NCBI GenBank assembly: GCA_016932575.1
Contig: JAFGCO010000011.1
Coordinates: forward strand, 108,321 to 172,320
Length of the DNA stretch: 64,000 bases
Direction: 5' to 3'
Origin: a bacterium
GTDB taxonomy: Bacteria; Zhuqueibacterota; QNDG01; JAFGCO01
Below the pieces are notes generated by a model that saw only the letters and a program-made list of their open reading frames with translations, was not told the DNA's origin and did not search any database. A program made the translations under genes and the position numbers. Position 1 is the stretch's first letter. Each line of letters begins with the position of its first letter. Below are positions 9,867 through 53,664 of this stretch, piece by piece.

Positions 9867-9895
9867 TTGCATTTTAAAGAAATATTTTGTATAAT
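9867..9895 (+). promoter_or_regulatory. sigma70-type promoter for rpmB (TTGCAT-17 bp-TATAAT)
   Basis: Consensus-like -35/-10 hexamers with 17-bp spacer about 55 bp upstream of rpmB ATG. Confidence 0.5.
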
Positions 9896-9952
9896 TTATG
9901 ACACTTTTAGGGAATGAACCGAATAAATACCATATTACTTTGAGGAAGACCC

Positions 9953-27448: not shown

Positions 27449-27845
27449 AATCTCCTCACTCACTTTGTTTATCCTTTCATATTAACAAAACAATATATCT
27501 TCCAAAACAACGACAATAATCATTTTGAATTCAGACTCTGTATCTATGTTCATTTCATTTTGAAAATAATCATTTCTTGTTAAAAATTCAAGATATTTAT
27601 AATGAAATTTTATTTGATCAGCGTTAAAATCAATTTGATAAAGATTGATAATACATAACTGCTTCGTTATTCCATAGTCGTCAATAAATACAGGGTATAT
27701 CATTTTTACGAACAAATATTCAATATTTTTAAAGAATTGAACGATAAAACCGACCATTTCTTGACAATAATATGTTTAAATCGTATATTCTAAAAAATAC
27801 AGAATTAAAGTGAGTCACGAGCCAAATCCTCAGGGGATCACTTCA

Positions 27846-36562: not shown

Positions 36563-38497
36563 TTATGCTCGAAAAAACGCTTTAAGAAGGATTTCTATAT
36601 CCAGAAAAATCGAATAATTTTTCATATAATAATGTCTGTATTTCATTTTCTCTTCATCGGTCAGCTGCTTGGAACGGTGAATCTGGACCATACCGGTTAA
36701 TCCGGGTTTGAAGCCCATAGGGGCCATATCTGGTTCGAACGGGATCATTTCTGTACCAACGACGCTCATCTGCCCAAAAAGAATCGGAATTATCAAGAAG
36801 AGAATTTGCACCAGACCATGCATTTTCTTCTCCCGCCTCCAAACCTGAATAATCAACAATTTCTGTCCCATACCATTTGATATATACTCTTTCTGAAACC
36901 GTAATCCCGGTGCGACAAGAATCCATAAACCGGTGATCAAGGAAAAAGGTGCAAGAACAATCACCCACACCAGATCGAATAATCTTTTAAACAACAGGTT
37001 CCATCCCTGAAAAATGGGATAATCCAGATCCATCAATGCGATATCATCAAAAGTATCCACATTTGAATGCCCGATCAGTACATCCATTTGACGCGGAACC
37101 ATCTTAAAATCCAGATGTAAATCCTTTCCCCGGCTCATGAGTTTTAAAATACGGTTATAGCTGACTGATTCTGCAGGAAAAATCACTTCATGAATACGAT
37201 GGGCCACAGCCACACGCTCGATATCTTCAAGGCTCCCCAGAAGCGGTACAGATTTCACTTTCACATCTTTTTCAGTCGCTTCATCAAGAGAAACAACGCC
37301 GACTACCTCATAGCCGGTATCAGGATGTCGTCGCAGGTTTTTAAGAATACGTTGACTTGCACTGCCTGTGCCCACAACAATAACCCTGCGATTGACCATG
37401 GACCGGCCCAGTCTGCTGAACAGAACAAACCGGCTTTTTTGGGTGGCAATACGGATCATAAAGCGCCATCCGCTTAAAAAAACAGCATCCAGGAATGCTG
37501 CGATCAACAGCACTGCCCGGCTGAACTGATATTCCGGAAGAAAAAAAGTTACCGACGTATTCAAGACAAACCCGAAGAAAACAGCACCGATGGCATTGCT
37601 GACACTCACCAGGCTCCGGCGGTAAAGTCCCATGCCCCAAAAACAACCCAGCCAGATCGTGGAATAGATCACATTGACCCAACCATATCTTGGCCAATAA
37701 GCGGGATTTTTCAACCAGACAAGAATCGCGATGAAAAGTCCGATTTGAAGAAAAAGCAGATCAATAACCGGTACGAATATCCGTTGAAAAAGGTGTGATA
37801 AAAAACCAATCCCTCCGCGAAGCCAAATACCGATCATTAAAAACCATTGCGGTAAAAACGCCCATCCTGATTGAAAGTGTTTACGTACAAAAAGCTGCAT
37901 GGCTCCGTAAAAAATACGCAGATTATCAAAGGGTGCTTCATTTGCGCTGCGCCCTTTGTAATGGATGATCTGAGTGGTTGGCAGATAGATAATTCTCCAT
38001 CCTGTTTTGCGTATCCGGTAGCACCAATCCAGATCTTCACCATACAAAAAAAATTGTTCATCTAATAATCCGGCTTCATCCACTGCTTTTTTACGAACAA
38101 ACATGAATGAACCGGAGATGGCTTCCACTTCGGTTGTATCATCAGGATCAAGATAGGTTAAATTATACCGGCCGAATAACCGGCTTTTCGGAAAAAGCCT
38201 GTTCAAACCTATCGCTTTCGTGAATCCGACCCATGGCGTCGGATAACTACGCCGGCAGGCCAGCTGCAGGCTGCCGTCAGGATTGAGAATCTTACATCCC
38301 GTCATACCGACTTCAGTATGGGCCTCCATATAATTCAGACACACCCGGAATGTGTCCTCACGTACCAGAGTATCAGGATTAATCAGACAAATATATTTTC
38401 CTGTTGCTGTTTTTAAAGCCTGATTATTGGCTTTTGCAAATCCTAGATTTTCTGAATTGGTAATGAGTTGAACCGTACGAAACCGCTTCCGGACCAT
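36563..38497 (-). CDS. bifunctional GT2 glycosyltransferase / polyprenyl glycosylphosphotransferase (bacterial sugar transferase) fusion
   Basis: N-terminal GT2 (YGEDLDWCYR), central TM region, C-terminal sugar-transferase domain (PGLTGMVQIHRSKQLTDEEKMKYRHYYMKNYSIFLDIEILLK); see start-codon anomaly in findings. Confidence 0.7.
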   Translation of the reverse strand: MVRKRFRTVQLITNSENLGFAKANNQALKTATGKYICLINPDTLVREDTFRVCLNYMEAHTEVGMTGCKILNPDGSLQLACRRSYPTPWVGFTKAIGLNRLFPKSRLFGRYNLTYLDPDDTTEVEAISGSFMFVRKKAVDEAGLLDEQFFLYGEDLDWCYRIRKTGWRIIYLPTTQIIHYKGRSANEAPFDNLRIFYGAMQLFVRKHFQSGWAFLPQWFLMIGIWLRGGIGFLSHLFQRIFVPVIDLLFLQIGLFIAILVWLKNPAYWPRYGWVNVIYSTIWLGCFWGMGLYRRSLVSVSNAIGAVFFGFVLNTSVTFFLPEYQFSRAVLLIAAFLDAVFLSGWRFMIRIATQKSRFVLFSRLGRSMVNRRVIVVGTGSASQRILKNLRRHPDTGYEVVGVVSLDEATEKDVKVKSVPLLGSLEDIERVAVAHRIHEVIFPAESVSYNRILKLMSRGKDLHLDFKMVPRQMDVLIGHSNVDTFDDIALMDLDYPIFQGWNLLFKRLFDLVWVIVLAPFSLITGLWILVAPGLRFQKEYISNGMGQKLLIIQVWRREKKMHGLVQILFLIIPILFGQMSVVGTEMIPFEPDMAPMGFKPGLTGMVQIHRSKQLTDEEKMKYRHYYMKNYSIFLDIEILLKAFFRA

Positions 38498-38650
38498 TGC
38501 CTGACTGCCATCCGTAGATGCATTGTCTACAACAATAATTTCGGAAGGGATACCTTTTAGTGCCTTGACAATTGATTGAATCGCCTGCTCAAGATAGGAT
38601 TTAACATTGTAATTGACAATAATAACGGATATGTCATTGGAACGCGCGAT

Positions 38651-39376
38651 TTATAACCTCCCCAGGATACTGAGAAAACGCAGTTTCCATACCATCCAGG
38701 CCGCTTCACTCACTATGCCTGAATGCATCTTTGAACTCCCTATATTGCGGTCTACAAAAATAATAGGAATTTCTTTCAGTCGGAATCCGTGCTTCCAGGC
38801 TTTAAAGCTCATTTCAATTTGAAAGGCATAACCGTCAGAATGAATATCATTCAAATTAATATTTTCCAGCACACGCCGATGATAACATTTGAATCCACCG
38901 GTCGCATCCCGAACCGGCATGCCCGTGACAATCCGGGAATAAAGATTGGCAAACCAGGAAAGAAGCAGACGCGACATGGGCCAGTTCACCACATTGACAC
39001 CCTTGATGTAACGGGATCCCAATATAAAATCGTACTGATTAATAATTTTCAAGAAATTAGGAATTTCATTCGGATCATGAGAAAGATCGGCATCCATCTG
39101 AAATATTATCTGATAATCATGTTCCAGAGCATATCGAAATCCTTCTACATAGGCGGTTCCAAGCCCCAATTTACAGGATCGTTTGAGTAAATGCGTTCTC
39201 GACGTCTTTTTGCACCAGCGTTCGACGATTTCGGCTGTCCCATCCGGAGAATTATCATCGACGACCAAAATTTCTATCGCCGGTTCCTGCTGTAAAACCA
39301 GGGGAATCACCTTCTGGATATTCTGTACCTCGTTATAAGTCGGAATAATAACAAGGATGGAATCACTTTTTTGCAC
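38651..39376 (-). CDS. GT2 polyprenol-phosphate glycosyltransferase (Dpm1/GtrB/ArnC-like)
   Basis: 241 aa; ILVIIPTYNE...VVDDNSPDGT...QMDADLSHDP. Confidence 0.8.
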   Translation of the reverse strand: MQKSDSILVIIPTYNEVQNIQKVIPLVLQQEPAIEILVVDDNSPDGTAEIVERWCKKTSRTHLLKRSCKLGLGTAYVEGFRYALEHDYQIIFQMDADLSHDPNEIPNFLKIINQYDFILGSRYIKGVNVVNWPMSRLLLSWFANLYSRIVTGMPVRDATGGFKCYHRRVLENINLNDIHSDGYAFQIEMSFKAWKHGFRLKEIPIIFVDRNIGSSKMHSGIVSEAAWMVWKLRFLSILGRL

Positions 39377-39396
39377 GGGTCTGCCGTTTTATTATT

Positions 39397-39870
39397 TTAT
39401 GGTTTTTGGGGGATTTTACTGCCGGAGTTCCTGAAATCCAACAATTTCTGCTTCAATTCATCGTCTTGAAGCGCCAGAATCTGAACGGCTAAAATTGCCG
39501 CGTTTTTTGCACCGGCCTTGCCAATGGCTACAGTTGCCACAGGAATACCCGGAGGCATCTGAACAATGGAACAAAGCGCATCCAATCCGCTCAGAGGTGA
39601 AGCATCCAGAGGCACACCAATGACCGGAAGCACAGTCTGAGCGGCTACAACTCCGGGAAGATGTGCTGCCATGCCCGCACCGGCAATAATAACACCATAG
39701 CCCTTGTTTTCTGCCGAGGTGGCAAATGCTGTTACTTTATCCGGATCCCGATGGGCAGACATCACATAAACTTCATAGGGAATACCAAAAAAATCTAAAG
39801 CATCGGCGCAAGCCTGCATGACCTCTTCATCAGAGGTGCTGCCCATTAATATTGCTGCCTTTTTTACCAT
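39397..39870 (-). CDS. purE: 5-(carboxyamino)imidazole ribonucleotide mutase PurE
   Basis: 157 aa; PurE sequence (ILMGSTSD, SAHRDP, AGMAAHLPGVVAA); SD AAGGA. Confidence 0.9.
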   Translation of the reverse strand: MVKKAAILMGSTSDEEVMQACADALDFFGIPYEVYVMSAHRDPDKVTAFATSAENKGYGVIIAGAGMAAHLPGVVAAQTVLPVIGVPLDASPLSGLDALCSIVQMPPGIPVATVAIGKAGAKNAAILAVQILALQDDELKQKLLDFRNSGSKIPQKP

Positions 39871-40296
39871 GAATTTATTCCTTATCTGACACGGATATTT
39901 GGATTCATATACTTAATCGATTTTATCTGACGAAAATGAAAGATAAAAATAATCATCCCACTCTTTTTGATTTTTCAATCTTAAATACAACAGATCAATC
40001 GGTATTATCGGAAATTCACCCCTCATCCTCTCTTCCAAATAATCTTTCCTGAAACATGGCTCATCGAATAAACTGGCGGGAAAACAGACTGACCCGCCTG
40101 AAAATTACCATGCCGAAGACAGATAAACGGGAACCTGATGAATATCATCAGCACTAAAAACCTGCCAAAGTTCAGTATTTCATCAAGAATCGTGATAAAA
40201 AAATACAAAATATTTGGACTGCATGCAATAATAAATATGAGACTCTGGTCCACAACATATACACAACCGCAGTGTATAATACTCACATGTATTCGT

Positions 40297-41325
40297 TTAT
40301 TCCGAATCAAACTGGGTGCGAAATGTCTCTGCAATAACCTCCATTCGCCGCAGATAAGGCAGCTTTTCTTTACCCGGGGCGAATAATGCGATATCAATCA
40401 TATAAATCCGTTCTGTTACTGCATCGTAAAATGTATAATTCTTAAAAGGTCCGCCTGCTGCCTCATCCACATGCTCCCATAATCCGGCAGTGATTAATGC
40501 AGGCCGACCCCTGAAAGAACCTTCATGCGAAAAAAGATACCGGTCAGCAACCTGTTCTGAAAAATCCTTATAATAGGTTCGGCCAATTCGATTTCGCTCT
40601 TGAACAACCCATGCCTGATTGAGCAAAGAGATGTCACCGTTGTCTATCCATCGAATAAAAATCCATCGGTCCGGTAAAACCCGCCGCATCCATATAAAGT
40701 TATCGGCAGGAAAAGCTTCTGCTATAAAATAATCTTTCTGTATTCGCAGAGTCCAGCCGTAATTATCCATTAAATCTGTCTCAAGTTTCCTGTTTTCTCT
40801 GCCCTCTAACACCTCATCCGTAAGATAGCGCTCCATTTCTTTATGCATCAAATCATACAGCATAATCGAATGGTTTACAATCTTATCATGCAACGCGGTA
40901 ATATCGTTGCTTACCAGAATCATCATTACTTGATTTCTGGCCCATTCATTTTTCTTGAGGAAAACAAAGTTCTCTCCCTGTTCGATACTTTTCCGCAATG
41001 AAGGATCAACGGTTACATTTCGAATCATATCACCAATGCGGCCTTCTGAACGCAATGTGGATGCCACGATTAAAAAATGCGCACGGCTGTAATAATCAAT
41101 CAGGGAATCAGGCACGTGACGACATTTGAACCGATATTCCTTCTGAGGTGTTCGTACTACCTTTTCAAAAGTCGATCGCAGGGCGCCCTGAATGCCTTCC
41201 CAATCTTCATCTTCTGCCATAACGGAAATGACGCCCTCCTGCCACAGACTCCTGGGTTTTGGACTGCAATGATGAAATATGAGGAGACAAAGCACAAACA
41301 GGATCGATCGTATTAAAGTTCGCAT
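40297..41325 (-). CDS. hypothetical secreted protein
   Basis: 342-aa ORF with N-terminal signal peptide inside the glycosylation operon; family not confidently assigned. Confidence 0.6.
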   Translation of the reverse strand: MRTLIRSILFVLCLLIFHHCSPKPRSLWQEGVISVMAEDEDWEGIQGALRSTFEKVVRTPQKEYRFKCRHVPDSLIDYYSRAHFLIVASTLRSEGRIGDMIRNVTVDPSLRKSIEQGENFVFLKKNEWARNQVMMILVSNDITALHDKIVNHSIMLYDLMHKEMERYLTDEVLEGRENRKLETDLMDNYGWTLRIQKDYFIAEAFPADNFIWMRRVLPDRWIFIRWIDNGDISLLNQAWVVQERNRIGRTYYKDFSEQVADRYLFSHEGSFRGRPALITAGLWEHVDEAAGGPFKNYTFYDAVTERIYMIDIALFAPGKEKLPYLRRMEVIAETFRTQFDSE

Positions 41326-41382
41326 TCAATCATCCCCCTTTCTGATTCTGCATAACATAAAATTAACAATAGAAAATAATAT

Positions 41383-42339
41383 TTAATCGGTTTTTCTATC
41401 CCCACCCTTACGTGAAATAAACAAAATCCCGCCCGGCAGACTGGAAGCCACTGCCACAATAAACGCCAGGAATTCCATGGTGAAAGCATCCATGGCTGCC
41501 ATACCTGCCGTACCAAATAGTAAAACACCGGATTGTTCGCGAATGCCGATGCCCCCCAGACTGACCGGCAGGCTGGCCAATATAGCTATGACCGGAACAA
41601 ACAGAAAAAAATAGACAGGCGATACTGTACAGCCCAGGGATTTTCCTAATAAAAAATGCATCATAATCCGGGCGGATTGAACACACAGAGAGATCAATAA
41701 AACCTCAATAAATAAATGACGCCGCCGTCCAAAGTAATAAATATTGTTGTAAACATCTTTTGCTTTTAAATGCAAAGATTCGGGAATCATTTTTTTTATA
41801 AGCCAGAAAAAAAGTCTGGCAAACCTTCGAATAAAAAAGAAACATAGAATAAAAATCCAGGCACCAAGTAAACCAAGATAAAGGGTTCGAAATATCGGAT
41901 CGAGTTTTTTCTGAAGCAGTAAATAAGGCGATGCAAACAGCGCCATGCTCGATAAAACCAAAAGGCCCATTACACGATCCATAAAAACAGTGGAAACCGA
42001 AGCCGCTCCGTTTCGGGACAACCGGCGTACATCTAACATTCGGTAAAAGTCTCCTCCCACACCCCCGATTAAAAAATTATTAAAAAACAAGCCGGTAAAA
42101 TACATTGAAAGTGTTTTCCGAAAAGGCAAATTCACCGATTCGGCTCTCAACATATGCCACCATTGAAGACTGCCAAGAACATGGCTCAGCATAAACAGGA
42201 TCAGCGCTGCAAAAAACCAGAAAGGCTGTACCTGTTTCAGCGTATGTAAAACCCTCTCAATACCAATTCGGTTCAACAGAAAAATGATTAACGCACCGCT
42301 GATCACAATTTTGGCAATTTGAATAAATATTCTTCTCAT
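41383..42339 (-). CDS. flippase-like membrane protein (lysylphosphatidylglycerol-synthase TM-domain / UPF0104 type)
   Basis: 318 aa, about 8 TM helices, positively charged loops. Confidence 0.6.
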   Translation of the reverse strand: MRRIFIQIAKIVISGALIIFLLNRIGIERVLHTLKQVQPFWFFAALILFMLSHVLGSLQWWHMLRAESVNLPFRKTLSMYFTGLFFNNFLIGGVGGDFYRMLDVRRLSRNGAASVSTVFMDRVMGLLVLSSMALFASPYLLLQKKLDPIFRTLYLGLLGAWIFILCFFFIRRFARLFFWLIKKMIPESLHLKAKDVYNNIYYFGRRRHLFIEVLLISLCVQSARIMMHFLLGKSLGCTVSPVYFFLFVPVIAILASLPVSLGGIGIREQSGVLLFGTAGMAAMDAFTMEFLAFIVAVASSLPGGILFISRKGGDRKTD

Positions 42340-42370
42340 AAATTATAATGAAAAATAATGAATGGACGTT

Positions 42371-43426
42371 TCAAAAACCAGGCAAATCCCGATATCTCTT
42401 TTTCCTCATCACGAAAAATAAAAACGCTACACTGCCATGATACATCCGTCTCATGACGCGTGTGTCTTTCAATTTTCGAATACGTTTTACATCACTTCTG
42501 CCCCGGATCACGGTTTTCCATTGCCGAATAACACCGAATAAACCTATCGGTACAGCAAGAACCCGTTTGTATTGTCCAGAGACCCCCCCAAAAATCATAG
42601 TGCCTAATTCAAGTATCAGCCTCATGGGAAAAAGCCAAAGCAATGTTAATAATGAATAATTTCTCAATATCATCAGCAGATTATTACGATGATTCAGCAC
42701 CATTTTCATTAAATGCTCCTGACCCAGCGTGCCTCCGGTTTGATGGTATACCACTGACTGCGGTGCTGTGCATACCCGATATCCCGCCAGATGGAAACGC
42801 CAGCACAAATCGATCTCCTCCATATGTGCAAAAAACGATTCTTCAAAAACACCCACAGCATTTAAAACCTCACGTCTTAAAATCATGGCCGCTCCGGTCG
42901 CCCAAAAAATATCCCGTGTTTCATCATATTGGCCTGTGTCTTTTTCCATTATATGAAAAAGACGGCCTCTCGCGAAAGGATATCCGAAAATGTCCATTTC
43001 GCCACCGGCCGCACCGCAATAATCGAATTTTTGCCGATTGTCAATCGATCTGACCTTGGGTTGAACCGCGGCAACATCCGGATTTTCTTTCATAAGCTCA
43101 ACAAGGGAACCGAGCCAGCTTTCTGTCACTTCCGCATCATTGTTTAAAAGAGCAATCAAATCCGATGCGGAGTGTGATATACCATAATTGCATCCCCCGG
43201 CATACCCCCGATTCACTCTGCTTTTTAAAATTTGAACCTTTGGAAATTCCCGCTCGACCATACTTAGGCTGTTATCTGTGGAACCGTTATCCACAATCAG
43301 AACAGAATAATGAGGATATCGGGTTTTTTTCAGGGAAAGCAGACAACGGCGAAGGATGGCTTCGCCGTTGTAATGAGGAATAATGATGATAACGTTGTAT
43401 TCGTCGGAATCCAATGCATAAACCAC
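42371..43426 (-). CDS. GT2 family glycosyltransferase
   Basis: 351 aa; IIIPHYNGE...VDNGSTD...NNDAEV...EEIDLCWR. Confidence 0.85.
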   Translation of the reverse strand: MVYALDSDEYNVIIIIPHYNGEAILRRCLLSLKKTRYPHYSVLIVDNGSTDNSLSMVEREFPKVQILKSRVNRGYAGGCNYGISHSASDLIALLNNDAEVTESWLGSLVELMKENPDVAAVQPKVRSIDNRQKFDYCGAAGGEMDIFGYPFARGRLFHIMEKDTGQYDETRDIFWATGAAMILRREVLNAVGVFEESFFAHMEEIDLCWRFHLAGYRVCTAPQSVVYHQTGGTLGQEHLMKMVLNHRNNLLMILRNYSLLTLLWLFPMRLILELGTMIFGGVSGQYKRVLAVPIGLFGVIRQWKTVIRGRSDVKRIRKLKDTRVMRRMYHGSVAFLFFVMRKKRYRDLPGF

Positions 43427-43434
43427 AATTTCTC

Positions 43435-46197
43435 TTAGGGAAGCATATCGGCTGTCGATCCGGTCGTGGTGTCATTTCCCATGAGCCTCATTAAAGATTC
43501 CAGCTCTTTTTTCGCATTGGGATCACCCGGATTCTGTTGCAGCCATTCTTCCAGAAACGCAACAGCGCGCTCATATTGACCGGATTGTCTATATAGGTAA
43601 AACAATTCTGACTGTGTACGCATATCATTGGGATCATCCTCTATCAATTCATTGAGAACCTCTTCAGCATAGTCGTACATTCGAAACACATAAGCCGCAT
43701 AGCTGGCTGTTTCCCGGGTTTCCTGTTTTGATTTGATACGGCCAGGAATTACATTTTTAATTCTTTCTTCGATATCGACATCCATACCCAGATCGCGTGC
43801 CACCTTATTCAGCAACATTGCTGTCAACTCACTGGGATAATAAATTTTTTCTGGAGGCATGAGCTCATCCATGGTCTGATATACCTCGACTGCCAGGTCT
43901 CTCTCACCTTCACTCTGATAGGTCTGCGCCAATCGAATAAACGCGGATCGATAATTACCCAGCAATTTTAAAATATTGGTATTTAAATGGACCGAAGGAT
44001 CATTCAGCCCTCGATACTGATATTTTTCCAAAATGTTTCTGTGCAACACATCCGGATTGACATTGTCATTCACTTCGTACGGCATCACCCGAAAAGCCAG
44101 CCCGTCCATACGTAAATAAGAATCCAGATTGATCATATTATTATTGGCCACTGTAACAGCAAAATACACAGGTCGCTGCCACATGTTGTCATACAAAATT
44201 CTAAGAATCATTAAATCCTGCACCCGAAGCACCATCGGATTATTCTCAGGATACGTGGGCTCCAGCCTGAACGTGATTTTGTCAGGAATGCCTTCGAGTA
44301 TTTTCTTGCGTTCGTTCAGTTCCATGGTTTTGGATGCATCCCGCTGATTTTGATCCGTTCCCAAAAGCGCATCGGCTTCACGCTCCCGGATTTGCGGCGG
44401 TACCGGAATGGAAATATCCTGGGATTCCCACTGACGGTAATTGATCTCATCAATTTCCCTGTTTTTCAAGCGTATGGGTACTTTAGGTTCTTCATCACGC
44501 AATTGATAAATATACCAGGGCGTATTCAGCAGGGACAAATTTACAACCCGGACATCTTTCCGAATACCCTCCACTTCCTGCAGGTACCAAAGCGGGAACG
44601 TGTCATTGTCACCGTTTGTAAAAATTATGGCATTGGGTTCACAAGTTTGAAGAATGTTATAAGAATAATCATAAGCGACATAATTGCCGGACCGGTTATG
44701 TGATTCATAATTAAATGCGATCAGATTCACCGGAACGATAATGAGAAGAATGATTGTAACAAGCCCAAAAATCGCCTTTTTAAGCGCAATTCTATCCTTG
44801 ACCGCTTCTGAAATCCATTCCAGAATGCCTGCCATGCCGATACCGATCCAGAGTGCAAAAGCAAAGAAGCTGCCGACATACGAATAGTCACGCTCCCGGG
44901 GCTGGGGGTCGGGCTGGTTCAAATAGATAATAATGGCATATCCGGTAATCAGAAAGAACACAAGAACAGCGACTGCCCGTTTCCAGTCCCTGCTGAAATG
45001 GTGTACCGCACCCCAGACACCCACAAAAAAAGGCAAGCCGTACAATCCGCGCACACTGATAATATCGACCAGACGGTCGTGATAATCCATCGCAATGCCT
45101 TTGCCGATAAACTGCCAGCCGAAATAACGAGTATACATCATCTGTATCTGATAATTCCAAAAATCGGCTTTGCGGTATAAAAATGTCAGGAGCATGCTCT
45201 CCTGACCATACTGTTTCCTTCCAAGGTAATCCATCATCGCCTGAAACGTGGATGGATTATTTTCATTGATCGGCGGATTCATACCCGCACGAACATAGAT
45301 CATGAGATACGTTGAATATCCGACAATAACGAGTACGGGTAAAACCCACCAGGCGGCAAAAGCTTTCCGGTCTTTATAGTACATATACATAAGGGTGATA
45401 ACGACCCAAATGCCGCCAAACCATTTCAGAAAATTCCAGGCTTGAGCCTGGTGCTCGAGCATGTTTACACCCATTTTTTCAGGATCGTACTGATAAATCA
45501 GAATGTATAAAGTGATCGGTACAATGCCCTGAATAATAATCAGCATTAACAAATTGCGTACAGATTGATTATGATGAAAATAGGCAATAAGCAGCACAAA
45601 AGGAAATGCCAGAATATTCAGTAAATGGACGCCTGCGGCCAGACCGAAAAGATAGAAAATAAAAAAGATAAGCAACATGCTTCCCGTTTTTTCAGAGCGC
45701 TCGCCCCATAACAGGGCCAGCCAGATGACCAGTGCCGTGAAGAATATGGAAAATCCATAGACCTCAGCTTCAACTGCATTAAACCAGTGGCTGTCCGTAA
45801 ATGCAAAGGCCAGGGCGCCGAACAATGCACTTCCGTACATGATCCAGAGATCCTCCCAGGTCCTGGCTTCGCCCCGCCAGCGGCGGATCAACTGAACGAT
45901 AATTAAAAAAGTCAGGAACACTGTAGCCGCACTGATAAAAACCGTAAACATGTTTACTCTCAGACCAATATCCTCAAAAAAGGGCAGCATGGTCATGATC
46001 CGTCCGATCAGCAGATAAAGAGGCGCACCCGGGGGGTGAATGACACCGAGAATATATGATGACGCGATAAATTCGCCACAATCCCAAAATGAGGTGGTCG
46101 GCGCAACAGTGCTGTAATACACCAAAAAGGAAATGATAAAAACCAGCCCGCCAAAAATATATTGTATGCGACGATTTAAAGATTCAACGAATTGCAT
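43435..46197 (-). CDS. DUF2723-type GT-C fold membrane glycosyltransferase with C-terminal TPR repeats (PMT/ArnT/TMTC-like)
   Basis: 920 aa; N-terminal FWDCGEF...HPPGAPLY, about 11 TM helices, large periplasmic loops, C-terminal TPR-like helices; SD GGAGG. Confidence 0.7.
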   Translation of the reverse strand: MQFVESLNRRIQYIFGGLVFIISFLVYYSTVAPTTSFWDCGEFIASSYILGVIHPPGAPLYLLIGRIMTMLPFFEDIGLRVNMFTVFISAATVFLTFLIIVQLIRRWRGEARTWEDLWIMYGSALFGALAFAFTDSHWFNAVEAEVYGFSIFFTALVIWLALLWGERSEKTGSMLLIFFIFYLFGLAAGVHLLNILAFPFVLLIAYFHHNQSVRNLLMLIIIQGIVPITLYILIYQYDPEKMGVNMLEHQAQAWNFLKWFGGIWVVITLMYMYYKDRKAFAAWWVLPVLVIVGYSTYLMIYVRAGMNPPINENNPSTFQAMMDYLGRKQYGQESMLLTFLYRKADFWNYQIQMMYTRYFGWQFIGKGIAMDYHDRLVDIISVRGLYGLPFFVGVWGAVHHFSRDWKRAVAVLVFFLITGYAIIIYLNQPDPQPRERDYSYVGSFFAFALWIGIGMAGILEWISEAVKDRIALKKAIFGLVTIILLIIVPVNLIAFNYESHNRSGNYVAYDYSYNILQTCEPNAIIFTNGDNDTFPLWYLQEVEGIRKDVRVVNLSLLNTPWYIYQLRDEEPKVPIRLKNREIDEINYRQWESQDISIPVPPQIREREADALLGTDQNQRDASKTMELNERKKILEGIPDKITFRLEPTYPENNPMVLRVQDLMILRILYDNMWQRPVYFAVTVANNNMINLDSYLRMDGLAFRVMPYEVNDNVNPDVLHRNILEKYQYRGLNDPSVHLNTNILKLLGNYRSAFIRLAQTYQSEGERDLAVEVYQTMDELMPPEKIYYPSELTAMLLNKVARDLGMDVDIEERIKNVIPGRIKSKQETRETASYAAYVFRMYDYAEEVLNELIEDDPNDMRTQSELFYLYRQSGQYERAVAFLEEWLQQNPGDPNAKKELESLMRLMGNDTTTGSTADMLP

Positions 46198-46618: not shown

Positions 46619-49600
46619 ATGAAGAAAAAAAATCATTTCATTTCAAGACGATCCTTTTTCAACAAAAGCGCCGCCGGAACACTGGGTTTCATCCTGTCTC
46701 CCTCATCATTCAATCGATTGTTCAGTGCTTCTCTTTCTGACGGAGATAAATCATCTGTGGTAGTGGTGACAGATGAAAATGTGGTGGGTTCAAATCAGGA
46801 AGGAATCGATTCCGCAGTGGTTCAATCCATGATAGACGCCGCGATTCGGATTCTTACAGGAATCAATGATCTCGGAAATGCCTGGAAAACCCTTTTTCCC
46901 GGAATCACATCAAAAAGCATCATCAGTATTAAGGTCAATTGTATCAACAGACGTATGGCAAGCCATAAAAAAGTTGCCTATGCGATTGCGCATGGACTGA
47001 CTCAAATGCAATTCGATGGAATGTCATTTGCCGAAAACAATATCATCATTTGGGATCGCAAAGAAGGTGAACTGAAAAATGCTGGATACACATTAAATAC
47101 ATCTTCCAAAGGAATTCGTTGCTATGCCAGCAACAGTTCCTGTGCCGGTTATTCAAAAAAAAATTATAACGTCTATGGCAGTCGCCAGGCCCTGAGTCGT
47201 ATACTGACCGATCAGACAGATTTTCTTATTAACCTGTCTATACTGAAAAATCATGGATCAGCCGGTGTCACCCTGAGCATGAAGAACCATTTGGGATCCT
47301 GCGACGATCCGGCGAAATTGCACCCCAATTACTGCAGTCCCTACATTGCAGCATTAAACGATAAAGACGCAATCAAGACGAAACAAATGCTCTGCATATG
47401 CGATGCCCTCTATGGCATCGTTTCTGGCGGCCCCTCCGGATCTCCTCAGGTGGCACCTAAATCCCTGATTGTAAGCCGGGATCCGGTGGCGCACGATACG
47501 ATTGGTTCTCAGATATTAGAGCAATTTGGATGCAGGACAGTACACAAAGCCATTCATATTGCCGCGGCGGCTTCAACCGGTTATTATCTTGGCACCAATG
47601 ATCCTGCTAAAATCGATCTGCTGGAAATTAAAAATCCATCATCACAGATTATTGAAAATCCGCCTTCTGAAAAAAGCCGGGTTGTCAGTGTGTCTGACGA
47701 CAGAGCTGTACAGAAAAAGGAAGACCAGATATCAATTCGGGAAGACATTATCCAGGTGATGGTGGATGAAGGTATCTGCCGCACCATGCAGAAAACAGAT
47801 GTGGGTGAAGCATGGAAGAAGCTGTTTCCCGGGCTCACCCGGGACAGTGTGATCGGAATCAAGGTGAACTGCGAAAATAACCACCTTTCCAGCCATTCTG
47901 AAGTTGCCATGTCTATTGTCAACGGATTAAAACGGATGGAGGTTAACGGCAGCGGCTTTCCTGAAAAAAACATTCTGATTTGGGATCGCAATGAATCGAA
48001 TCTGACATCGGCGGGGTATTCACTGAATCAAGGGGGGAGCGGTGTGCAGATTTATGGTACCGACAGGGAGGGTGTTGGCTATTCAGATCCGCCTTACACG
48101 GTTTGCGGTCAATCTCAGAGATTAAGTGCTATTCTGACGGAAAAAACCGACTACTTAATCAATCTTTCGGTATTAAGCAATCACGAAATTCTGGGTGCGG
48201 CTCTGGGAATGTACAGTCAAACAAGAAGCTGTGAATATCCTGAACTTCTTTATGAAAATGCCGGTAATCCCGGCATTCCCGCTCTGAATAACCTCTCTCC
48301 CATCCGGGACAAACAGGTGATATCTGTTTGCGATGCTGTTTTAGGAATCATCAGTGATGGATCCCAGGGAAAAATACCTGTCACATCCAGACAGCTTCTT
48401 TTCAGCCGGGATCCGGTCGCCAATGACTGGGTCGCTTCTGAAATTCTGAGAAATCATGGATGCAATACTGTGGATAAAGCTGCTTATATCGAAACCGCAT
48501 CGCATATTCCGTATAATCTCGGTACCAATGATCCTGAATGGATAGAACTGGAAAATGTGATCAATCCGTCACTCGGAATCATTGAAGATCCGCCTGAAGC
48601 CAAAAGCACGGTGGTGAAGGTTTATGATGAGCATGCAATTGCAGGTACAGGGAATTCTGAACAATTGAATGCCGCAGTGATTCAGGCCATGGTGGATGCG
48701 GGGATTTGCAGGTTGACAGGGATGACACATGTCGGAGAAGCCTGGAAAAGCATGTTTCCAGAAATCACCCGAAACAGTATCATCGGAATACGGATAAACT
48801 GTGACAACCATCCTTCCAGTCATCCGGAAGTTGTCCGTGCAGTCATCAACGGGATTGTCCAGATGCAAGTCGAAGAAAGTCCGTTTCCGGAAGAGCATAT
48901 CATTGTTTGGGCATCTTCGGAAGCAGACCTTCTTGCTTCAGGTTATACAATCAGAAAGCAGGGAAACGGATATCGATGCTATGCCACAGACAGTTCCGGA
49001 AAAGGATACACAACGTCCACATTGACAGTGATGAATTCAGAGCAGAAATTAAGCAGGATACTAATGGACGAGATCGATTATTGTATTAATTTGCCTGTAC
49101 TGCGGTCTCATGATACGGCGGGTGTGTCTTTGGGATTGATGAACAGTCTGAAAGATTGCCATAATCCGGAAGCACTCTCCGGTAATCATTACGATCCAGG
49201 CATTGCCGAGCTTAATTATCTTTCTGTGATTCGTGAAAAGCAGGTTGTCACGCTTTGCGACGCCATTTACGGCCGGATATCGGCGGCATCAGACAATCTG
49301 GTAATGCCTCGGACACTGACCATCAGCCGGGATCCTGTAGCGCACGACATGGTGGCATCCGAAATATTAAAAACACAGGGATGCGAAACCACAGAAGAAG
49401 CTACATATATCGATACGGCTGCACATTATCCTTACCGGCTCGGAACCAATGATCCGGATTGGATGAGGTTAGTGGAGGTGCAGAATCCCGCCGGAAATAA
49501 CGGAACCGGCACTTCAACAGTTGCGCAAAAAGATTATAACGGGATCAACCATCCAGGCACATTCCAGCTTTATCCAAATTATCCCAATCCTTTTAATGGG

Positions 49601-49834
49601 CAAACACAGCTGATGTATTATTTGCCCGGATCGCAATATGTTGAACTGGATATTCTGGACGTGCAGGGACAGCGGGTCAAACGCCTGATAAATCGCATTC
49701 AGGAGCAGGGCATGCATCGGGTATTATGGAACGGCCGTTCCTCACGGGGAATGGCGCTTCCGACCGGGACCTATATTGCGCGAATCCGGTCGAATGGCAT
49801 CCATCAAACTCGTAAAATGACCCTGATCCAGTAA
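46619..49834 (+). CDS. secreted protein: twin-arginine signal + three tandem DUF362-like domains + T9SS C-terminal sorting domain
   Basis: 1071 aa; SRRSFFNK Tat motif; three ~290-aa paralogous repeats with conserved KVNC, CDA[LVI]xG, SRDPVA[HN]D, LGTNDP; C-terminal YPNYPNPFNGQT...GTYIARIRS. Confidence 0.75.
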   Translation: MKKKNHFISRRSFFNKSAAGTLGFILSPSSFNRLFSASLSDGDKSSVVVVTDENVVGSNQEGIDSAVVQSMIDAAIRILTGINDLGNAWKTLFPGITSKSIISIKVNCINRRMASHKKVAYAIAHGLTQMQFDGMSFAENNIIIWDRKEGELKNAGYTLNTSSKGIRCYASNSSCAGYSKKNYNVYGSRQALSRILTDQTDFLINLSILKNHGSAGVTLSMKNHLGSCDDPAKLHPNYCSPYIAALNDKDAIKTKQMLCICDALYGIVSGGPSGSPQVAPKSLIVSRDPVAHDTIGSQILEQFGCRTVHKAIHIAAAASTGYYLGTNDPAKIDLLEIKNPSSQIIENPPSEKSRVVSVSDDRAVQKKEDQISIREDIIQVMVDEGICRTMQKTDVGEAWKKLFPGLTRDSVIGIKVNCENNHLSSHSEVAMSIVNGLKRMEVNGSGFPEKNILIWDRNESNLTSAGYSLNQGGSGVQIYGTDREGVGYSDPPYTVCGQSQRLSAILTEKTDYLINLSVLSNHEILGAALGMYSQTRSCEYPELLYENAGNPGIPALNNLSPIRDKQVISVCDAVLGIISDGSQGKIPVTSRQLLFSRDPVANDWVASEILRNHGCNTVDKAAYIETASHIPYNLGTNDPEWIELENVINPSLGIIEDPPEAKSTVVKVYDEHAIAGTGNSEQLNAAVIQAMVDAGICRLTGMTHVGEAWKSMFPEITRNSIIGIRINCDNHPSSHPEVVRAVINGIVQMQVEESPFPEEHIIVWASSEADLLASGYTIRKQGNGYRCYATDSSGKGYTTSTLTVMNSEQKLSRILMDEIDYCINLPVLRSHDTAGVSLGLMNSLKDCHNPEALSGNHYDPGIAELNYLSVIREKQVVTLCDAIYGRISAASDNLVMPRTLTISRDPVAHDMVASEILKTQGCETTEEATYIDTAAHYPYRLGTNDPDWMRLVEVQNPAGNNGTGTSTVAQKDYNGINHPGTFQLYPNYPNPFNGQTQLMYYLPGSQYVELDILDVQGQRVKRLINRIQEQGMHRVLWNGRSSRGMALPTGTYIARIRSNGIHQTRKMTLIQ

Positions 49835-50079: not shown

Positions 50080-51312
50080 TTACGTCTTCAGCTTAAACAC
50101 GATATTCATATCAATCCCCTGAGTGTTCCGGACCGTCCAAAAATCTCCCCGCAATTGAACATCTATCAGTTCGCGAAACCATTGATACTCAGTTCGGATT
50201 TTGTCTTTTTCAATATCAGGCAGCAATTCGGCGTCTTTATGACGAATCTTAACTGAGAGAGCGGAATCATCGGTGCGTTTTATCAGAATTTGAAACCGAT
50301 CTGAATCCTGATATAATTCGCGCTTTTTATTGGCTAAAAAAAGAATTTCGGAAATCACAAAAGCGAAAGGGACTGCTTGAGAAATCGGAATTAAAATATG
50401 CGGATTATCAATATGGATTTGAATTTCATTTGTCAAATGTGCATGAAAAAAATAATTGGCGATTTCAGTTAAATACTCTGAAAGATTGACCTGGTTGAAA
50501 CGATCAGACTGATGCAATTGCATATGCATCAAAATCAGAGAATAAATCATCACTCGAATTTCAGTATACAGTTTCCTTTGCGTTTCCTGCTCCGCTTGCA
50601 TAATATGTATATCCAGCAGACTGCATAAATGCTGCAGATGGGTTCTCGAGGATTGATGAACCGTACGAATGTAAGAAGACTTCTGGCGTAAAAGTTCTCG
50701 CAGCTCCTCTTCTTCCCATTTTTTTGACTTTATCTTTTTCTGATTGTCTTCACGCTCCAGTTCCATTTCTTTGATCTTGCGTTCCAGATCTTTGATCTGT
50801 GAATCACGGATCGTTTTCAGCATATCCTTGGCTTTTTGCCGGTCTTCAATCAAGGTTTTTACATAAGCACCGAACAAAACAAGCATGCAGATCGCAAAAA
50901 TCCGCATCCAGAAGCCCAGAGGATCCGGTTTAAAAATTTGCTGAAGCAAACTCCCGCGATTATAAATAAACACATCCCGTATTGCTTCCAGAATCCAGTA
51001 AATAAGACCAAACACCAGACTGAGAAGAATAATCGTCCCCTTGCCTAAAAAATCGAGATCTTTGTCCTTGGCTTCTGCTTTTTGCCTCATGGATTGAATA
51101 ATGGCACTGAATGCCATAATAATGCAAATGACCATAATCCGCATCCATAGGGACATGCTTTCCGGTGCAAAAATTCGCTGAACGAGACTGCCTTTTTCAA
51201 AGGCAATGACATCCCGGACCGATTCAAGCACCCAGTAAACCCCGGAAAAGAACAAGCCGATCCAGATAAAATTAACAACATGTTTGGACTTGATATTCAC
51301 TTGAGATGACAT
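50080..51312 (-). CDS. membrane sensor histidine kinase-like protein (HisKA_2-type H-box) with duplicated N-terminal membrane module
   Basis: Two repeats of WxLExxRDV...GSLxQxIFxP...WMRIxxIC; coiled coil; HQSSRTHLQ H-box-like and ATPase-like C-terminus; start moved to ATG 51312 preceded by AAGGAG. Confidence 0.5.
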   Translation of the reverse strand: MSSQVNIKSKHVVNFIWIGLFFSGVYWVLESVRDVIAFEKGSLVQRIFAPESMSLWMRIMVICIIMAFSAIIQSMRQKAEAKDKDLDFLGKGTIILLSLVFGLIYWILEAIRDVFIYNRGSLLQQIFKPDPLGFWMRIFAICMLVLFGAYVKTLIEDRQKAKDMLKTIRDSQIKDLERKIKEMELEREDNQKKIKSKKWEEEELRELLRQKSSYIRTVHQSSRTHLQHLCSLLDIHIMQAEQETQRKLYTEIRVMIYSLILMHMQLHQSDRFNQVNLSEYLTEIANYFFHAHLTNEIQIHIDNPHILIPISQAVPFAFVISEILFLANKKRELYQDSDRFQILIKRTDDSALSVKIRHKDAELLPDIEKDKIRTEYQWFRELIDVQLRGDFWTVRNTQGIDMNIVFKLKT

Positions 51313-51570
51313 TTTTCCACTCCTTAAAGTGAACGGATATTTCACCTCATTCACGGTAAAAATGAATAAAAAAACAGCTCTCTGGATTTAAAAGTACAAC
51401 GGAAGACTGTTGAATTATTGAAATCCTTTCACTGAGCATCTGTATTTTTTAATTTATACAAAATTAATGACATATCTGATACAGGTCATCCTTTTCAACA
51501 TCAGCAATTATCGATTTTTATCTGCAGTCCGGACCGCATGAGATCCCCTACATTTTTTGCTTGTGTTTTT

Positions 51571-53664
51571 TCATCCGACTTCAATCAATCCAAACATCCC
51601 TTTATATCGATTTTGATACGTATGTCGCACCATCGCATGTTCCTGTCTTTCAATACCCGGATCGTCCTGAATCAGTGAAAACGCCTCTTTCCTGGCCTTT
51701 TCCAGAATAGGACCGTCTGTGGCCAGATTTGCAATTTTGAAATTCAGCAGCCCATGCTGCCGTGTACCAAACAGCTCACCGGGGCCGCGAATTTCCAGAT
51801 CCTTTTCCGCGATTTCAAATCCGTCATCGGTTCGAACCATTGTCTCCAACCGCTTTCCGGCATCATCGGAAAGCGGATACTGAGCTAAAAGAATGCAGGT
51901 GGATGCCTCACTCCCCCGGCCCACGCGCCCTCGAAGTTGATGCAACTGAGTCAATCCGAACCGCTCCGCGTGCTCAATCAGCATGACCGTGGCATTGGGA
52001 GCATCGACTCCCACCTCAATCACTGTAGTACTGACCAATACATCAATATCCCCGGCTTGAAAAGCCCGCATTGTCCTGTCTTTTTCATCACTCTTCATTC
52101 GTCCGTGCAACAGTCCCACCCGATAGTCTGAAAAAACCGATTTGGATAATGTATGATATCCTTCGGTGGCAGCCGCCAGATCGACTTTTTCGGATTCTTC
52201 AACCAATGGATAAACAATGTAAGCCTGTCTGCCTTTTTCGAGTTCAGAACGGATATATTCATAAATAGCATCACGCTTTCCTTCGCTTCGCCAGGCCGTT
52301 CGTACCGGTTTTCTTCCGGCAGGCATCTCATCCAGAATGCTGACATCAAGATCGCCATACAGCGTAAGGGCCAGAGTCCGGGGAATCGGCGTGGCAGTCA
52401 TGACCAGCACATCCGGATAAATCCCCTTTTTTCTCAGAAACGCCCGCTGCAGCACGCCAAATCGGTGTTGTTCATCAATCACAACCAGACCCAGTTTATC
52501 AAACTCAACACCTTCCTGTACCAGAGCGTGTGTACCAATGACAATCTGAATTTCTCCGTCATTCAATCCGGACAGGACGTTTTGCCGCTCCTTTGCGGTT
52601 TGCCCTCCCTTCAATAACACCACCCGAACGCCGTACTGTTCAAGCCAGGTATGAATGGTTAAATAATGTTGCTCTGCAAGAATTTCCGTGGGGGCCATCA
52701 GGGCGGTCTGATACCCATTTTCCACAGCGATCAGCATGGCGATACAGGCCACGACGGTCTTTCCGCTGCCGACATCCCCCTGGAGCAGCCGGTTCATGGG
52801 TTTACCGGATTTCATGTCTTGCCGAATTTCTCGGAGTACCCGCTTCTGGGCGGCTGTTAATTCAAATGGCAGTTTGCTCACCAGACTGCGGGTATATTCT
52901 CCCACACGCTGAAATGATATCCCTTTATCTTCGCGGGCCACCATTTTGCGCTGCAGAGCCAGATAAAGCTGCAGATAGAAAAGCTCTTCAAACTTCAACC
53001 GGGTCTGCGCCTGTCTGAGGCGCCGCCAATCAGACGGATAGTGCATATGTTGAAGAGATTCGCATAACGCCATGAATTGGTGCCTCGAAAGAAGGTTGAG
53101 AGGAAGTGTTTCTTCCATAGGCGGCATGCTGCTTAATACCTGGTGAATCACCCTTCGAAATCCCCGGCTGTCAAATCCTCCCTTTTTCAACGCTTCGGTG
53201 GACGGATATAACGGAATGATTCCCCCCGTATGCAGGGGATCAGTTTCATTCTCTCCGGAAATGATATCATATTCAGGATGCACCATCTGGGGTCCCCTGA
53301 AAACTGTCACTTTACCGCTAAAAGCCACTGTATCACCTGCCTTAAAAACTTTGGCTACATATTGCACCGCCTGAAACCAGACACAGCTCAGAAAGCCGCT
53401 GCCGTCCCCCACCAGGACCACCAGCCGCTTCCTTCGGCCGGAAACCATATCCACAGAATAGATCCGGCCTGCGATTGTGGCTGAAACATCCGGTTTGAGC
53501 TGTGCGATTTTAATTAAATTTGAGCGGTCAAGGTAACGCCTCGGAAAATAGAAAAGCAGGTCTTCAACAGTTTCGATACCAATTTTATGAAGCAGGCCGG
53601 CCCGTTTGGGTCCGATGCCTTTGATATATTGAACCGAAGTGTCTGTCAATAACGGGCGGCTCAT
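51571..53664 (-). CDS. recG: ATP-dependent DNA helicase RecG
   Basis: 697 aa; wedge domain, Walker A GDVGSGKT, VIDEQHRFG, helicase C motifs. Confidence 0.9.
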   Translation of the reverse strand: MSRPLLTDTSVQYIKGIGPKRAGLLHKIGIETVEDLLFYFPRRYLDRSNLIKIAQLKPDVSATIAGRIYSVDMVSGRRKRLVVLVGDGSGFLSCVWFQAVQYVAKVFKAGDTVAFSGKVTVFRGPQMVHPEYDIISGENETDPLHTGGIIPLYPSTEALKKGGFDSRGFRRVIHQVLSSMPPMEETLPLNLLSRHQFMALCESLQHMHYPSDWRRLRQAQTRLKFEELFYLQLYLALQRKMVAREDKGISFQRVGEYTRSLVSKLPFELTAAQKRVLREIRQDMKSGKPMNRLLQGDVGSGKTVVACIAMLIAVENGYQTALMAPTEILAEQHYLTIHTWLEQYGVRVVLLKGGQTAKERQNVLSGLNDGEIQIVIGTHALVQEGVEFDKLGLVVIDEQHRFGVLQRAFLRKKGIYPDVLVMTATPIPRTLALTLYGDLDVSILDEMPAGRKPVRTAWRSEGKRDAIYEYIRSELEKGRQAYIVYPLVEESEKVDLAAATEGYHTLSKSVFSDYRVGLLHGRMKSDEKDRTMRAFQAGDIDVLVSTTVIEVGVDAPNATVMLIEHAERFGLTQLHQLRGRVGRGSEASTCILLAQYPLSDDAGKRLETMVRTDDGFEIAEKDLEIRGPGELFGTRQHGLLNFKIANLATDGPILEKARKEAFSLIQDDPGIERQEHAMVRHTYQNRYKGMFGLIEVG

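Follow-up and report, generated by a model that had tools for sequence, protein, structure and literature searches.

In the 64,000-nt window of contig JAFGCO010000011.1, the minus-strand open reading frames (ORFs) at 36563-46197, which form the locus examined, encode a glycosyltransferase of the GT-C type with a DUF2723 domain (in the following the GT-C), together with two GT2-family glycosyltransferases (GT2a and GT2b), a PF03706 membrane protein, a DUF4837 protein, PurE, and a fusion of a third GT2 domain with a phosphoglycosyltransferase (PGT)-like module. By sequence homology, the DUF2723 protein is a member of the family of human TMEM260 and has a GT-C fold. TMEM260 is the protein O-mannosyltransferase for IPT domains in the endoplasmic reticulum (CAZy GT117; PDB 9rql/9rqm/9rqn), whose function in humans was established in 2023 (PMC10214176) and whose structure followed in 2026 (10.64898/2026.03.17.711096). 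The fold, the family membership, the conservation of residues and the linkage of the gene to partner genes in several phyla are established in this analysis, and the reading that we favour, with a probability of about one half, is that a periplasmic O-mannosylation system of three components is organised around this TMEM260-type GT-C.

Domain calls were made with Pfam and NCBIfam models, Pfam matches being taken at E<=0.01, and the GT-C reaches 193 bits (cut-off 24.2) against PF11028, the TMEM260-like family that was formerly DUF2723, over positions 1-177 of the 179 of the profile; PF28495 (TMEM260_2) is listed for the protein and its relatives, and TPR matches were found at residues 841-898. 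A profile of the family finds solved human TMEM260 (9rql) with E=4.4e-26 in two aligned stretches. In the first loop, 'fWD39cGE42f...H54PPGaP' of the window protein corresponds to 'GGD52SGE55L...H67PPGYP' of TMEM260, and in the alpha/beta domain 'FTNGD530NDTFPLWY' corresponds to 'LLRGD441LPGNSLRY', which equates D39, E42, H54 and D530 with D52, E55, H67 and D441 of the human enzyme. The cryo-EM preprint on TMEM260 assigns the binding of dolichyl phosphate mannose to D52 and H67, the role of catalytic base to D441, which lies in the luminal Rossmann-like domain, and the binding of an extended acceptor peptide to the TPR domain (10.64898/2026.03.17.711096); the D52A variant has been found to be inactive (PMC10214176, 2023). 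Without exception, the 85 full-length homologues compared keep D39, E42 and H54; they represent at least eight lineages, with KSB1, Calditrichota, Marinimicrobia, Chlorobi, Ignavibacteria, Rhodothermales, Latescibacteria and Bacteroidota among them, and the positions of D39 and H54 were absent from the patterns by which these homologues had been retrieved. For D530, the invariance across the 80 loci of the neighbourhood comparison described below is circular, because FTNGDND served as a retrieval pattern; the residue is also invariant in an independently retrieved set of 22 homologues.

Hydropathy and charge place the positively charged N-terminus of the GT-C in the cytoplasm and its first loop (residues 33-85) outside, with the invariant acidic residues in this first periplasmic loop and the TPR domain likewise in the periplasm. 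The DUF2723/TPR protein had been taken for a GT-C enzyme in the initial annotation, and when topology and loop acidic residues were checked as a possible refutation of this idea, it survived. The AlphaFold2 model, for which 22 homologues were used (pLDDT 76, pTM 0.72), shows about 13 membrane helices, a mixed alpha/beta (Rossmann-like) domain at about 505-730, with strands and helices at residues 524-704, and helical repeats at 740-911. The structural neighbours of the model are AftB (value of 18.8), Pmt4 and STT3B (18.6 each), Pmt2 (18.5), PglB (18.1), ALG12 (17.4), ArnT (15.3) and AglB (14.8); Foldseek concurs with these neighbours, and AftA and AftD are also among them. With human TMEM260 the protein has in common a GT-C core that is followed by an alpha/beta and a TPR domain on the non-cytoplasmic side, whereas it differs as a bacterial inner-membrane protein of 920 aa in which about 13 instead of 11 transmembrane (TM) helices are counted and the periplasmic part is larger; its donor would be of the undecaprenyl type and not a dolichyl phosphate, and no substrate with an IPT domain was identified for it. 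A resemblance to the eukaryotic TMTC O-mannosyltransferases, which had been proposed before, did not hold. TMTC1-4 (GT105) also possess a GT-C part that is followed by luminal TPR, but this is a likeness of architecture and not of family, as the window GT-C contains no PMT_2 or TMTC_DUF1736, has a short TPR tract, and carries an alpha/beta domain with the catalytic base in between. The nearest eukaryotic relative by direct homology is TMEM260 (GT117), and the TMTC-like assignment was dropped for this reason and because Pfam gave no match to a PMT_2/TMTC domain at E<=0.01. In the literature searched on DUF2723, PF11028, GT117 and bacterial TMEM260, no study of any bacterial member was found, and the structural work on TMEM260 names bacterial relatives only as 'distant homologs' (10.64898/2026.03.17.711096).

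The second component, GT2b, is from its sequence a polyprenyl-phosphate hexose synthase of the DPM1 type, probably with mannose as the sugar. Its best match in the PDB is the dolichol-phosphate-mannose synthase of P. furiosus (5mlz, E=1.8e-28, residues 6-231), the metal-binding MDADL (DAD) motif is kept, and no TM segment is seen by hydropathy, as is the case in the DPM1/Ppm1 type; ArnC and GtrB are the next PDB matches, with much weaker scores. The match and the DAD motif bear out the description as a Dpm1/GtrB/ArnC-like GT2 with which the analysis started, and GenBank names the protein a polyprenol monophosphomannose synthase. Since its NCBIfam equivalog matches (AglJ, PpgS and a dolichyl-phosphate hexose transferase) are all below cut-off, mannose is a sugar that we infer. 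The third component matches PF03706 with 126 bits (2e-36) and the 'flippase-like' model TIGR00374 with 57 bits at a cut-off of 43, and it has about 7-8 TM segments by hydropathy; a comparison with the PDB by sequence gave no match. MprF has PF03706 as its flippase domain. In archaea, the C-terminal part of AglD is a domain of this family (Makarova et al. 2015, PMC5898192), and PF03706 genes adjoin the genes of AglD-like GT2 and PMT/STT3-like GT-C enzymes (PMC5898192). With this neighbourhood as a precedent, the earlier suggestion of a flippase is credible, and the PF03706 protein is a plausible candidate for the flippase of the lipid-linked donor.

In the proposed route, GT2b would charge polyprenyl phosphate with a hexose at the cytoplasmic face, and its homology points to mannose from GDP-mannose as the likeliest one. 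The PF03706 protein would move the polyprenyl-phosphate-sugar to the outer leaflet, as its gene position and the precedent in the family suggest. The membrane core of the GT-C would then bind the donor via D39 and H54, the periplasmic TPR would hold an extended segment of the acceptor, and D530 would deprotonate a Ser or Thr hydroxyl, all by analogy with TMEM260, and the products would be O-mannosylated periplasmic or secreted proteins. The sugar, its flipping and the protein acceptor are what we infer in this scheme, and the same applies to any role of GT2a, the fusion and the DUF4837 protein.

Like in the case of actinobacterial Ppm1/Pmt and yeast Dpm1/PMT, a polyprenyl-phosphate-mannose synthase would here serve a GT-C O-mannosyltransferase that acts outside the cytoplasm, but the GT-C of Ppm1/Pmt belongs to GT39 (PMT/PMT_2, with a MIR domain), and the window GT-C has no PMT or PMT_2 match in Pfam. 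We know of no PF03706 partner in the Ppm1/Pmt system. In the archaeal systems of the AglD/AglS type, with arCOG00899 (PF03706) and arCOG00563 (PMT/STT3-like GT-C), a DPM1-like GT2, a PF03706 protein and a GT-C are linked as they are here (PMC5898192), but the GT2 and PF03706 parts are often fused, the GT-C is of another family, and the sugar goes onto an N-glycan, whereas a direct transfer onto Ser/Thr is proposed for the system in the window. The GtrA/GtrB/GtrC and ArnC/ArnE-F/ArnT systems use GtrA, SMR or MATE proteins as flippases and not PF03706 proteins, they have O-antigen or lipid A as acceptors (PMC11127046), and their GT2 enzymes carry C-terminal TM helices, of which GT2b has none.

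Gene neighbourhoods were compared in 80 species-level loci from a genome scan, which matched the family in more than 600 stretches of species-level genomes; the loci come from KSB1, Calditrichota, Marinimicrobia, Chlorobi, Ignavibacteria, Balneolales/Rhodothermales, Latescibacteria, Bacteroidota, Kapaibacteria and Gemmatimonadota, and neighbours were identified by tblastn and by phmmer on the ORFs of the loci. The closest KSB1 loci have the full order of GT-C, GT2a, PF03706, DUF4837, purE, GT2b, fusion and accA. In a KSB1 clade at about 45% identity, the order is GT-C (often as a tandem duplicate), PF03706, DUF4837, purE and, further on, rmlD and GT2b, and in Calditrichota it is GT2a, rmlC, GT-C, PF03706, DUF4837, purE, rmlD, GT2b and accA. 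In Marinimicrobia and Latescibacteria, GT2a is the only partner that accompanies the GT-C, and the GT-C has none of these partners nearby in Chlorobi, Ignavibacteria, Rhodothermales and most Bacteroidota. GT2a is the most widespread neighbour of the GT-C, which it adjoins in 17/80 loci, PF03706 follows the GT-C in 12 of the 80, DUF4837 follows PF03706 in 13, and GT2b lies within 10 kb of the GT-C in 12/80; the trio of GT-C, PF03706 and GT2b is found within 10 kb in nine of the 80 loci, which belong to KSB1 and Calditrichota and have 40-59% GT-C identity. A lack of co-occurrence in related genomes had been named beforehand as a possible refutation; when this was checked, the genes were found to co-occur in related genomes, though to a limited extent. 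Tandem pairs of TMEM260-like GT-C paralogues, 43-57% identical to the window protein, occur in five loci (L002, L005, L007, L008 and L072), and the GT-C gene is single-copy in the window.

Several points weigh against the three-component system and are given here together. As to the enzyme, equivalents of R264, Y267 and R355 of TMEM260 could not be assigned, as a profile of GT-C residues 225-450 gave no TMEM260 match; the GT-C family has an invariant R327-x-x-Y330 and R357-Y358, which are not aligned to these three residues. As to the flippase, the flipping of polyprenyl-phosphate-sugars by PF03706 proteins is a prediction only, made for archaea (PMC5898192), and the substrates known or proposed for the family in the literature found are mostly glycerolipids (lysyl- and glucosaminyl-phosphatidylglycerol); bacterial partners in that literature are glycolipid synthases, as for GpgF and HexF, and there, too, the flipping is putative. 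As to the gene order, 56 of the 80 GT-C loci have no partner gene nearby, and recG and HisKA_2 on the 5' side as well as purE, accA, a thioesterase gene and PEPCK inside or on the 3' side keep the same order. Because these housekeeping genes do so, part of the synteny is core-genome order, and gene order alone is weak evidence. Furthermore, rmlD lies directly 5' of GT2b in nine loci (L004, L007, L008, L009, L010, L012, L016, L017 and L018), and rmlC lies beside the GT-C gene in one (L009:8128-8715), so that there is doubt on mannose as the only sugar. An rmlC-rmlD pair is found about 3 kb 3' of the GT-C in a Marinimicrobia locus (L014:15646-17072), and no rml gene is present within the 64-kb window. 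These genes for dTDP-rhamnose synthesis lie in the orthologous clusters of further KSB1 lineages, of Calditrichota and of unclassified lineages.

Such a picture would also arise if the gene order were ancestral core-genome synteny and the genes had two or three separate functions, GT2a and the PF03706 protein making and flipping a membrane glycolipid as do gpgSDF and hexSDF, rmlD (in relatives), GT2b and the GT2-PGT fusion serving a rhamnose-containing envelope glycan, and the GT-C obtaining its donor from elsewhere. This agrees with the tight coupling of rmlD to GT2b, with the pairing of PF03706 proteins with glycolipid synthases in Pseudomonas and Clostridioides, with the frequent lack of partners and the housekeeping genes just mentioned, and with a 426-nt gap, containing a motif common to relatives, that cuts the run of genes into two blocks. 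It does not explain that the adjacency of DUF2723 and PF03706 genes persists down to 40% GT-C identity in KSB1 and Calditrichota despite a varying upstream flank, nor that the same neighbourhood of GT2, PF03706 and GT-C arises independently in archaea (PMC5898192), and it is also of relevance that the GT-C requires a polyprenyl-phosphate-sugar donor and that its neighbourhood contains no enzyme for such a donor other than the DPM1-like synthase. Separate functions are regarded as a tentative and rather unlikely explanation.

The flanks of the gene in other lineages bear on the acceptor and belong to the same set of opposing points. In Chlorobi, of which Chlorobaculum (L045) and Prosthecochloris (L040) carry homologues, the GT-C is flanked by a HemN-like gene and lpxA, followed by a ROK kinase gene, and in Melioribacter a gene for a GT9 heptosyltransferase comes after it, which makes a link to lipopolysaccharide (LPS) synthesis possible in those lineages. 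The acceptor of the GT-C could accordingly be a molecule other than a protein, for example lipid A or the LPS core, as with ArnT, or a polysaccharide, and the TPR would then serve in partner binding. The structural neighbours of the GT-C include ArnT, AftA, AftB and AftD, the high conservation of the family in more than 600 matched stretches is as expected of a core envelope function, and rhamnose genes (in relatives) and rhamnosyltransferase-like GT2s are found in the cluster. However, the sole characterised member of the family, TMEM260, is a protein O-mannosyltransferase, the equivalent of its acceptor-side base D441 and the alpha/beta plus TPR architecture are kept, and the adjacency to LPS genes is seen in a few lineages only. 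A non-protein acceptor is regarded as unlikely.

The initial annotation had seen in the genes a complete lipid-linked glycosylation route, which is too strong, as two rhamnosyltransferase-like GT2s are assigned to no step, the flipping is putative, the trio is linked in 9/80 loci, and the conserved order includes recG, purE and accA. GT2a matches PF00535 with 105 bits, and its NCBIfam matches, among them one to the rhamnosyltransferase model TIGR01556 (1.6e-13), are all below cut-off; PDB matches are restricted to the N-terminal GT2 part, and one weak hydrophobic segment is seen by hydropathy at the C-terminus. The sub-threshold matches of the GT2 part of the fusion go to rhamnosyltransferase-type models as well, and GT2a and the fusion are membrane-tethered rhamnosyltransferase-like GT2s that probably act on lipid-linked substrates.

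The fusion had been described as a GT2-polyprenyl glycosylphosphotransferase, and of this description the domains are confirmed, but the transferase module lacks its catalytic dyad. The proteins of the fusion family have about 690 residues and a highly conserved GT2 domain, and the match to Bac_transf (PF02397; 47.8 bits) covers profile positions 94-175 of 179 only, while the alignable part of PglC and WbaP begins at the G-x-M-S-V-V-G motif and comprises only their C-terminal half. The Asp-Glu dyad is a conserved catalytic feature of monotopic PGTs (PMC10942596). In an alignment of WbaP (8t53), PglC (8g1n) and a canonical PGT from locus L057 with 17 members of the fusion family (42-100% identity), the dyad of the 'SLDELPQ' motif is replaced in 17/17 members, by QI in the window, by RR in the most distant ones and by QN, GS and other pairs elsewhere, and all 17 have lost GPRP and a stretch of about 37 residues (KFRSM...DPR); the position of the dyad is now a hydrophobic stretch (window 36563-37050, the C-terminal ~150 residues of the fusion). 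With the large monotopic PGTs of the WbaP/CpsE type (PMC10942596), the C-terminal 450 residues of the fusion have in common the TM bundle, PF13727, the KRxxD re-entrant helix and the C-terminal PGLTG...YY.KNYS..LD motifs, but unlike these enzymes the fusion has no Asp-Glu dyad, no KFRSM...DPR and no GPRP, and it carries an extra N-terminal GT2. An active PGT in the fusion was rejected for the absent dyad and the deletion, and because the dyad is missing family-wide, the fusion cannot count as a step of lipid-sugar synthesis. From these alignments, the view that fits the PGT module best is that of a pseudoenzyme scaffold, which would anchor the GT2 in the membrane or dimerise it, and the conserved dead PGT module fused to a GT2 is a clean example of such a scaffold in the synthesis of envelope glycans.

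The start of the fusion gene is unusual. Its GT2 domain begins with 51 residues ('ISVIIVNYN...VVDNASTDGS') whose in-frame codons lie at 38650-38498, before the annotated ATG at 38497, and between the TAA of GT2b and this ATG the in-frame stretch contains no ATG, GTG or TTG. At the junction GGGAGG-TTATAA-ATC, a Shine-Dalgarno-like site lies 6 nt 5' of the ATC at 38650, which is in the same frame as GT2b. An identical TAA-ATC junction is found in independent assemblies of relatives with 80% and 67% identity (L083, L081, L082), and the more distant orthologues in L001-L003 begin with ATG at the position of the ATC. The ATC at 38650 is likely the start, either as a genuine non-ATG start or through coupling of termination and reinitiation, as the sequence comparison suggests. 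A frameshift or sequencing error, which had been suspected from an out-of-frame ATG at 38637, was rejected, because TAA-ATC and GGGAGG recur in independent assemblies. In GenBank, GT2b itself starts with ATC, six codons 3' of the GTG used in the ORF list (39356-39376), which gives a protein of 235 aa and makes it the second ATC start within the same block as the fusion gene.

The general O-glycosylation of Bacteroidota has, according to a review of 2025, a conserved core of a hexose (mannose) and a deoxyhexose (rhamnose), the core machinery, flippase and transferase have been undiscovered, and it is advised to seek homologues of eukaryotic O-mannosylation (PMC12871550). The cluster could be this core-glycan machinery for general protein O-glycosylation in the FCB group, with the TMEM260-like enzyme adding the reducing-end mannose and the GT2s, together with rmlC/rmlD in relatives, giving the deoxyhexose of the hexose-deoxyhexose core; this we consider improbable. 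Of similarly low probability is the wider idea that bacterial TMEM260 homologues are the initiating enzyme of Bacteroidota/FCB O-glycosylation, and that the eukaryotic TMEM260 pathway descends from a widespread bacterial system of periplasmic O-mannosylation or has a common ancestor with it. Consistent with the core-glycan machinery, the family spans Bacteroidota, Chlorobi, Ignavibacteria, Rhodothermales and sister phyla, and the cluster joins a mannose-phosphate-polyprenol synthase with rhamnosyltransferase-like GT2s and, in relatives, with rmlC/rmlD. The sequon D[ST][ALVIMT] was counted in secreted and cytoplasmic proteins of the DUF2723-bearing loci, as observed over shuffled, the secreted class being defined by a crude, home-made signal-peptide heuristic. 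It is enriched in secreted proteins of Bacteroidota-type loci (1.50, z 5.3) and of the pooled Calditrichota/unclassified loci L009, L010, L011, L013, L016, L017 and L018 (1.81, z 4.1), whereas there is no significant enrichment in the KSB1-like group including the window (1.15, 43 vs 37.5 shuffled in 40 proteins, z 0.9) and in Marinimicrobia (0.88, z -0.6). The cytoplasmic ratios are 0.75-0.92, and control motifs in secreted proteins gave 0.82-1.19 as observed over composition-based expectation. For the organism of the window, a link to the core O-glycan is thus not supported by the sequon test, which covers 40 proteins and a sequon that could differ there. A further difficulty is that dTDP-rhamnose cannot donate rhamnose in the periplasm, so that the order of steps stays unexplained. 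The sequon excess in the Calditrichota/unclassified FCB loci lies outside Bacteroidota, and no paper that ties the TMEM260/DUF2723 family to the Bacteroidota core O-glycan was found in the literature searched.

Already known are the annotated parts and the three-component logic as such (PMC11127046, PMC5898192). What is new is that the alignments show the GT-C to be a genuine TMEM260 homologue, which keeps every catalytic residue that could be aligned, that across phyla its gene is linked with those of a DPM1-like synthase and of a PF03706 protein, and that the accompanying 'PGT' is a conserved pseudoenzyme. Bacterial TMEM260 enzymes become testable, with donor-binding residues and base kept, a spread over the FCB superphylum, and adjacency to a synthase and a putative flippase in several phyla. 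The cluster may bear on the transferase and the flippase that are missing among the core O-glycosylation enzymes in Bacteroidota, and its significance would rise sharply if the link to an FCB general O-glycosylation core were true; mannose and rhamnose, the sugars suggested by the cluster and its relatives, would then match the Bacteroidota core.

The features of the locus are listed in Table 1. All seven ORFs were exactly where the initial annotation had placed them, all on the minus strand, and each domain identity that it had given is backed by Pfam or NCBIfam. GenBank entries MBN2102978-MBN2102983 already name these proteins identically, and among named organisms, those of candidate division KSB1 are the closest relatives. 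The genes were also said to lie on one strand with short gaps, of which the single strand holds, but the gaps in gene order from the GT-C are 8, 31, 57, 426, 20 and 0-153 nt, and the 426-nt gap between DUF4837 and purE divides the genes into two tight blocks rather than one tight operon. The common strand says little, because of the 47 ORFs in the window that reach 150 aa, 40 are read from the minus strand. The purE gene is a passenger housekeeping gene outside the glycosylation function.

Table 1. Features of the examined locus, and LPS-type genes that flank the GT-C gene in other lineages (locus:position).
Feature	Position	Strand	Domains and remarks
GT-C glycosyltransferase, TMEM260 family (DUF2723, GT117-like), 920 aa	43435..46197	-	PF11028, C-terminal TPR
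GT2a, 351 aa, rhamnosyltransferase/WbbL/MftF-like, GT-A type	42371..43426	-	PF00535
PF03706/UPF0104 membrane protein (MprF flippase-domain-like, 'PplT'), 318 aa	41383..42339	-	PF03706, TIGR00374
DUF4837 protein, periplasmic lipoprotein, 342 aa	40297..41325	-	PF16125, signal peptide
426-nt spacer, DUF4837/purE	39871..40296	-	carries AAATATTTTGTATTTTT at 40199-40215
purE (N5-CAIR mutase)	39397..39870	-	PF00731 1e-61; TIGR01162 above cut-off
GT2b, 241 aa, soluble, DPM1/Ppm1-type	38651..39376	-	PDB match to 5mlz
GT2-pseudoPGT fusion, ~695 aa from probable ATC start (annotated ORF 36563-38497, 644 aa)	36563..38650	-	GT2 + CoA_binding_3 (PF13727) + Bac_transf
LPS-type flanks (lpxA/GT9), Chlorobi and Melioribacter	L040:12489-13406, L045:12645-13436, L048:12971-14041

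The DUF4837 protein (PF16125, 3e-35) is taken for a lipoprotein because of its signal peptide and a near-invariant Cys20. Its AlphaFold2 model (pLDDT 92) is a two-lobed alpha/beta structure, for which Foldseek finds Apa of M. tuberculosis as the best match, followed by PsbP, Mog1, MTC28, LpqN and DcrB; this PsbP/Mog1/DcrB/Apa-like fold assigns no function. The motif AAATATTTTGTATTTTT in the spacer, on the minus strand, is also present in L081 and L083, and copies with two mismatches lie at 9880-9896 (+) and 27582-27598 (-), both intergenic and 5' of genes on the same strand, which makes three matches in the window against 0.09 expected. By its sequence, it may be a promoter element of the FCB type (TAnnTTTG-like) and possibly the promoter of the purE block. 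A scan for sigma-70 promoters and intrinsic terminators gave counts near the shuffled expectation and no site in the intergenic gaps, and an Rfam scan of 30-50 kb found no family, with no riboswitch 5' of purE.

On the other side of the locus, the gene at 46619-49834 (+), which diverges from the GT-C gene, encodes a secreted protein of 1071 aa with three DUF362-like repeats and a C-terminal sorting domain of type IX secretion. This gene is not present in L083 (80% identity), where HisKA_2 lies immediately 5' of the GT-C gene. Further 5', recG, together with HisKA_2 in KSB1, precedes the GT-C in KSB1 and Marinimicrobia (window 50080-53664; L083:1-2127; L023:7575-9671).

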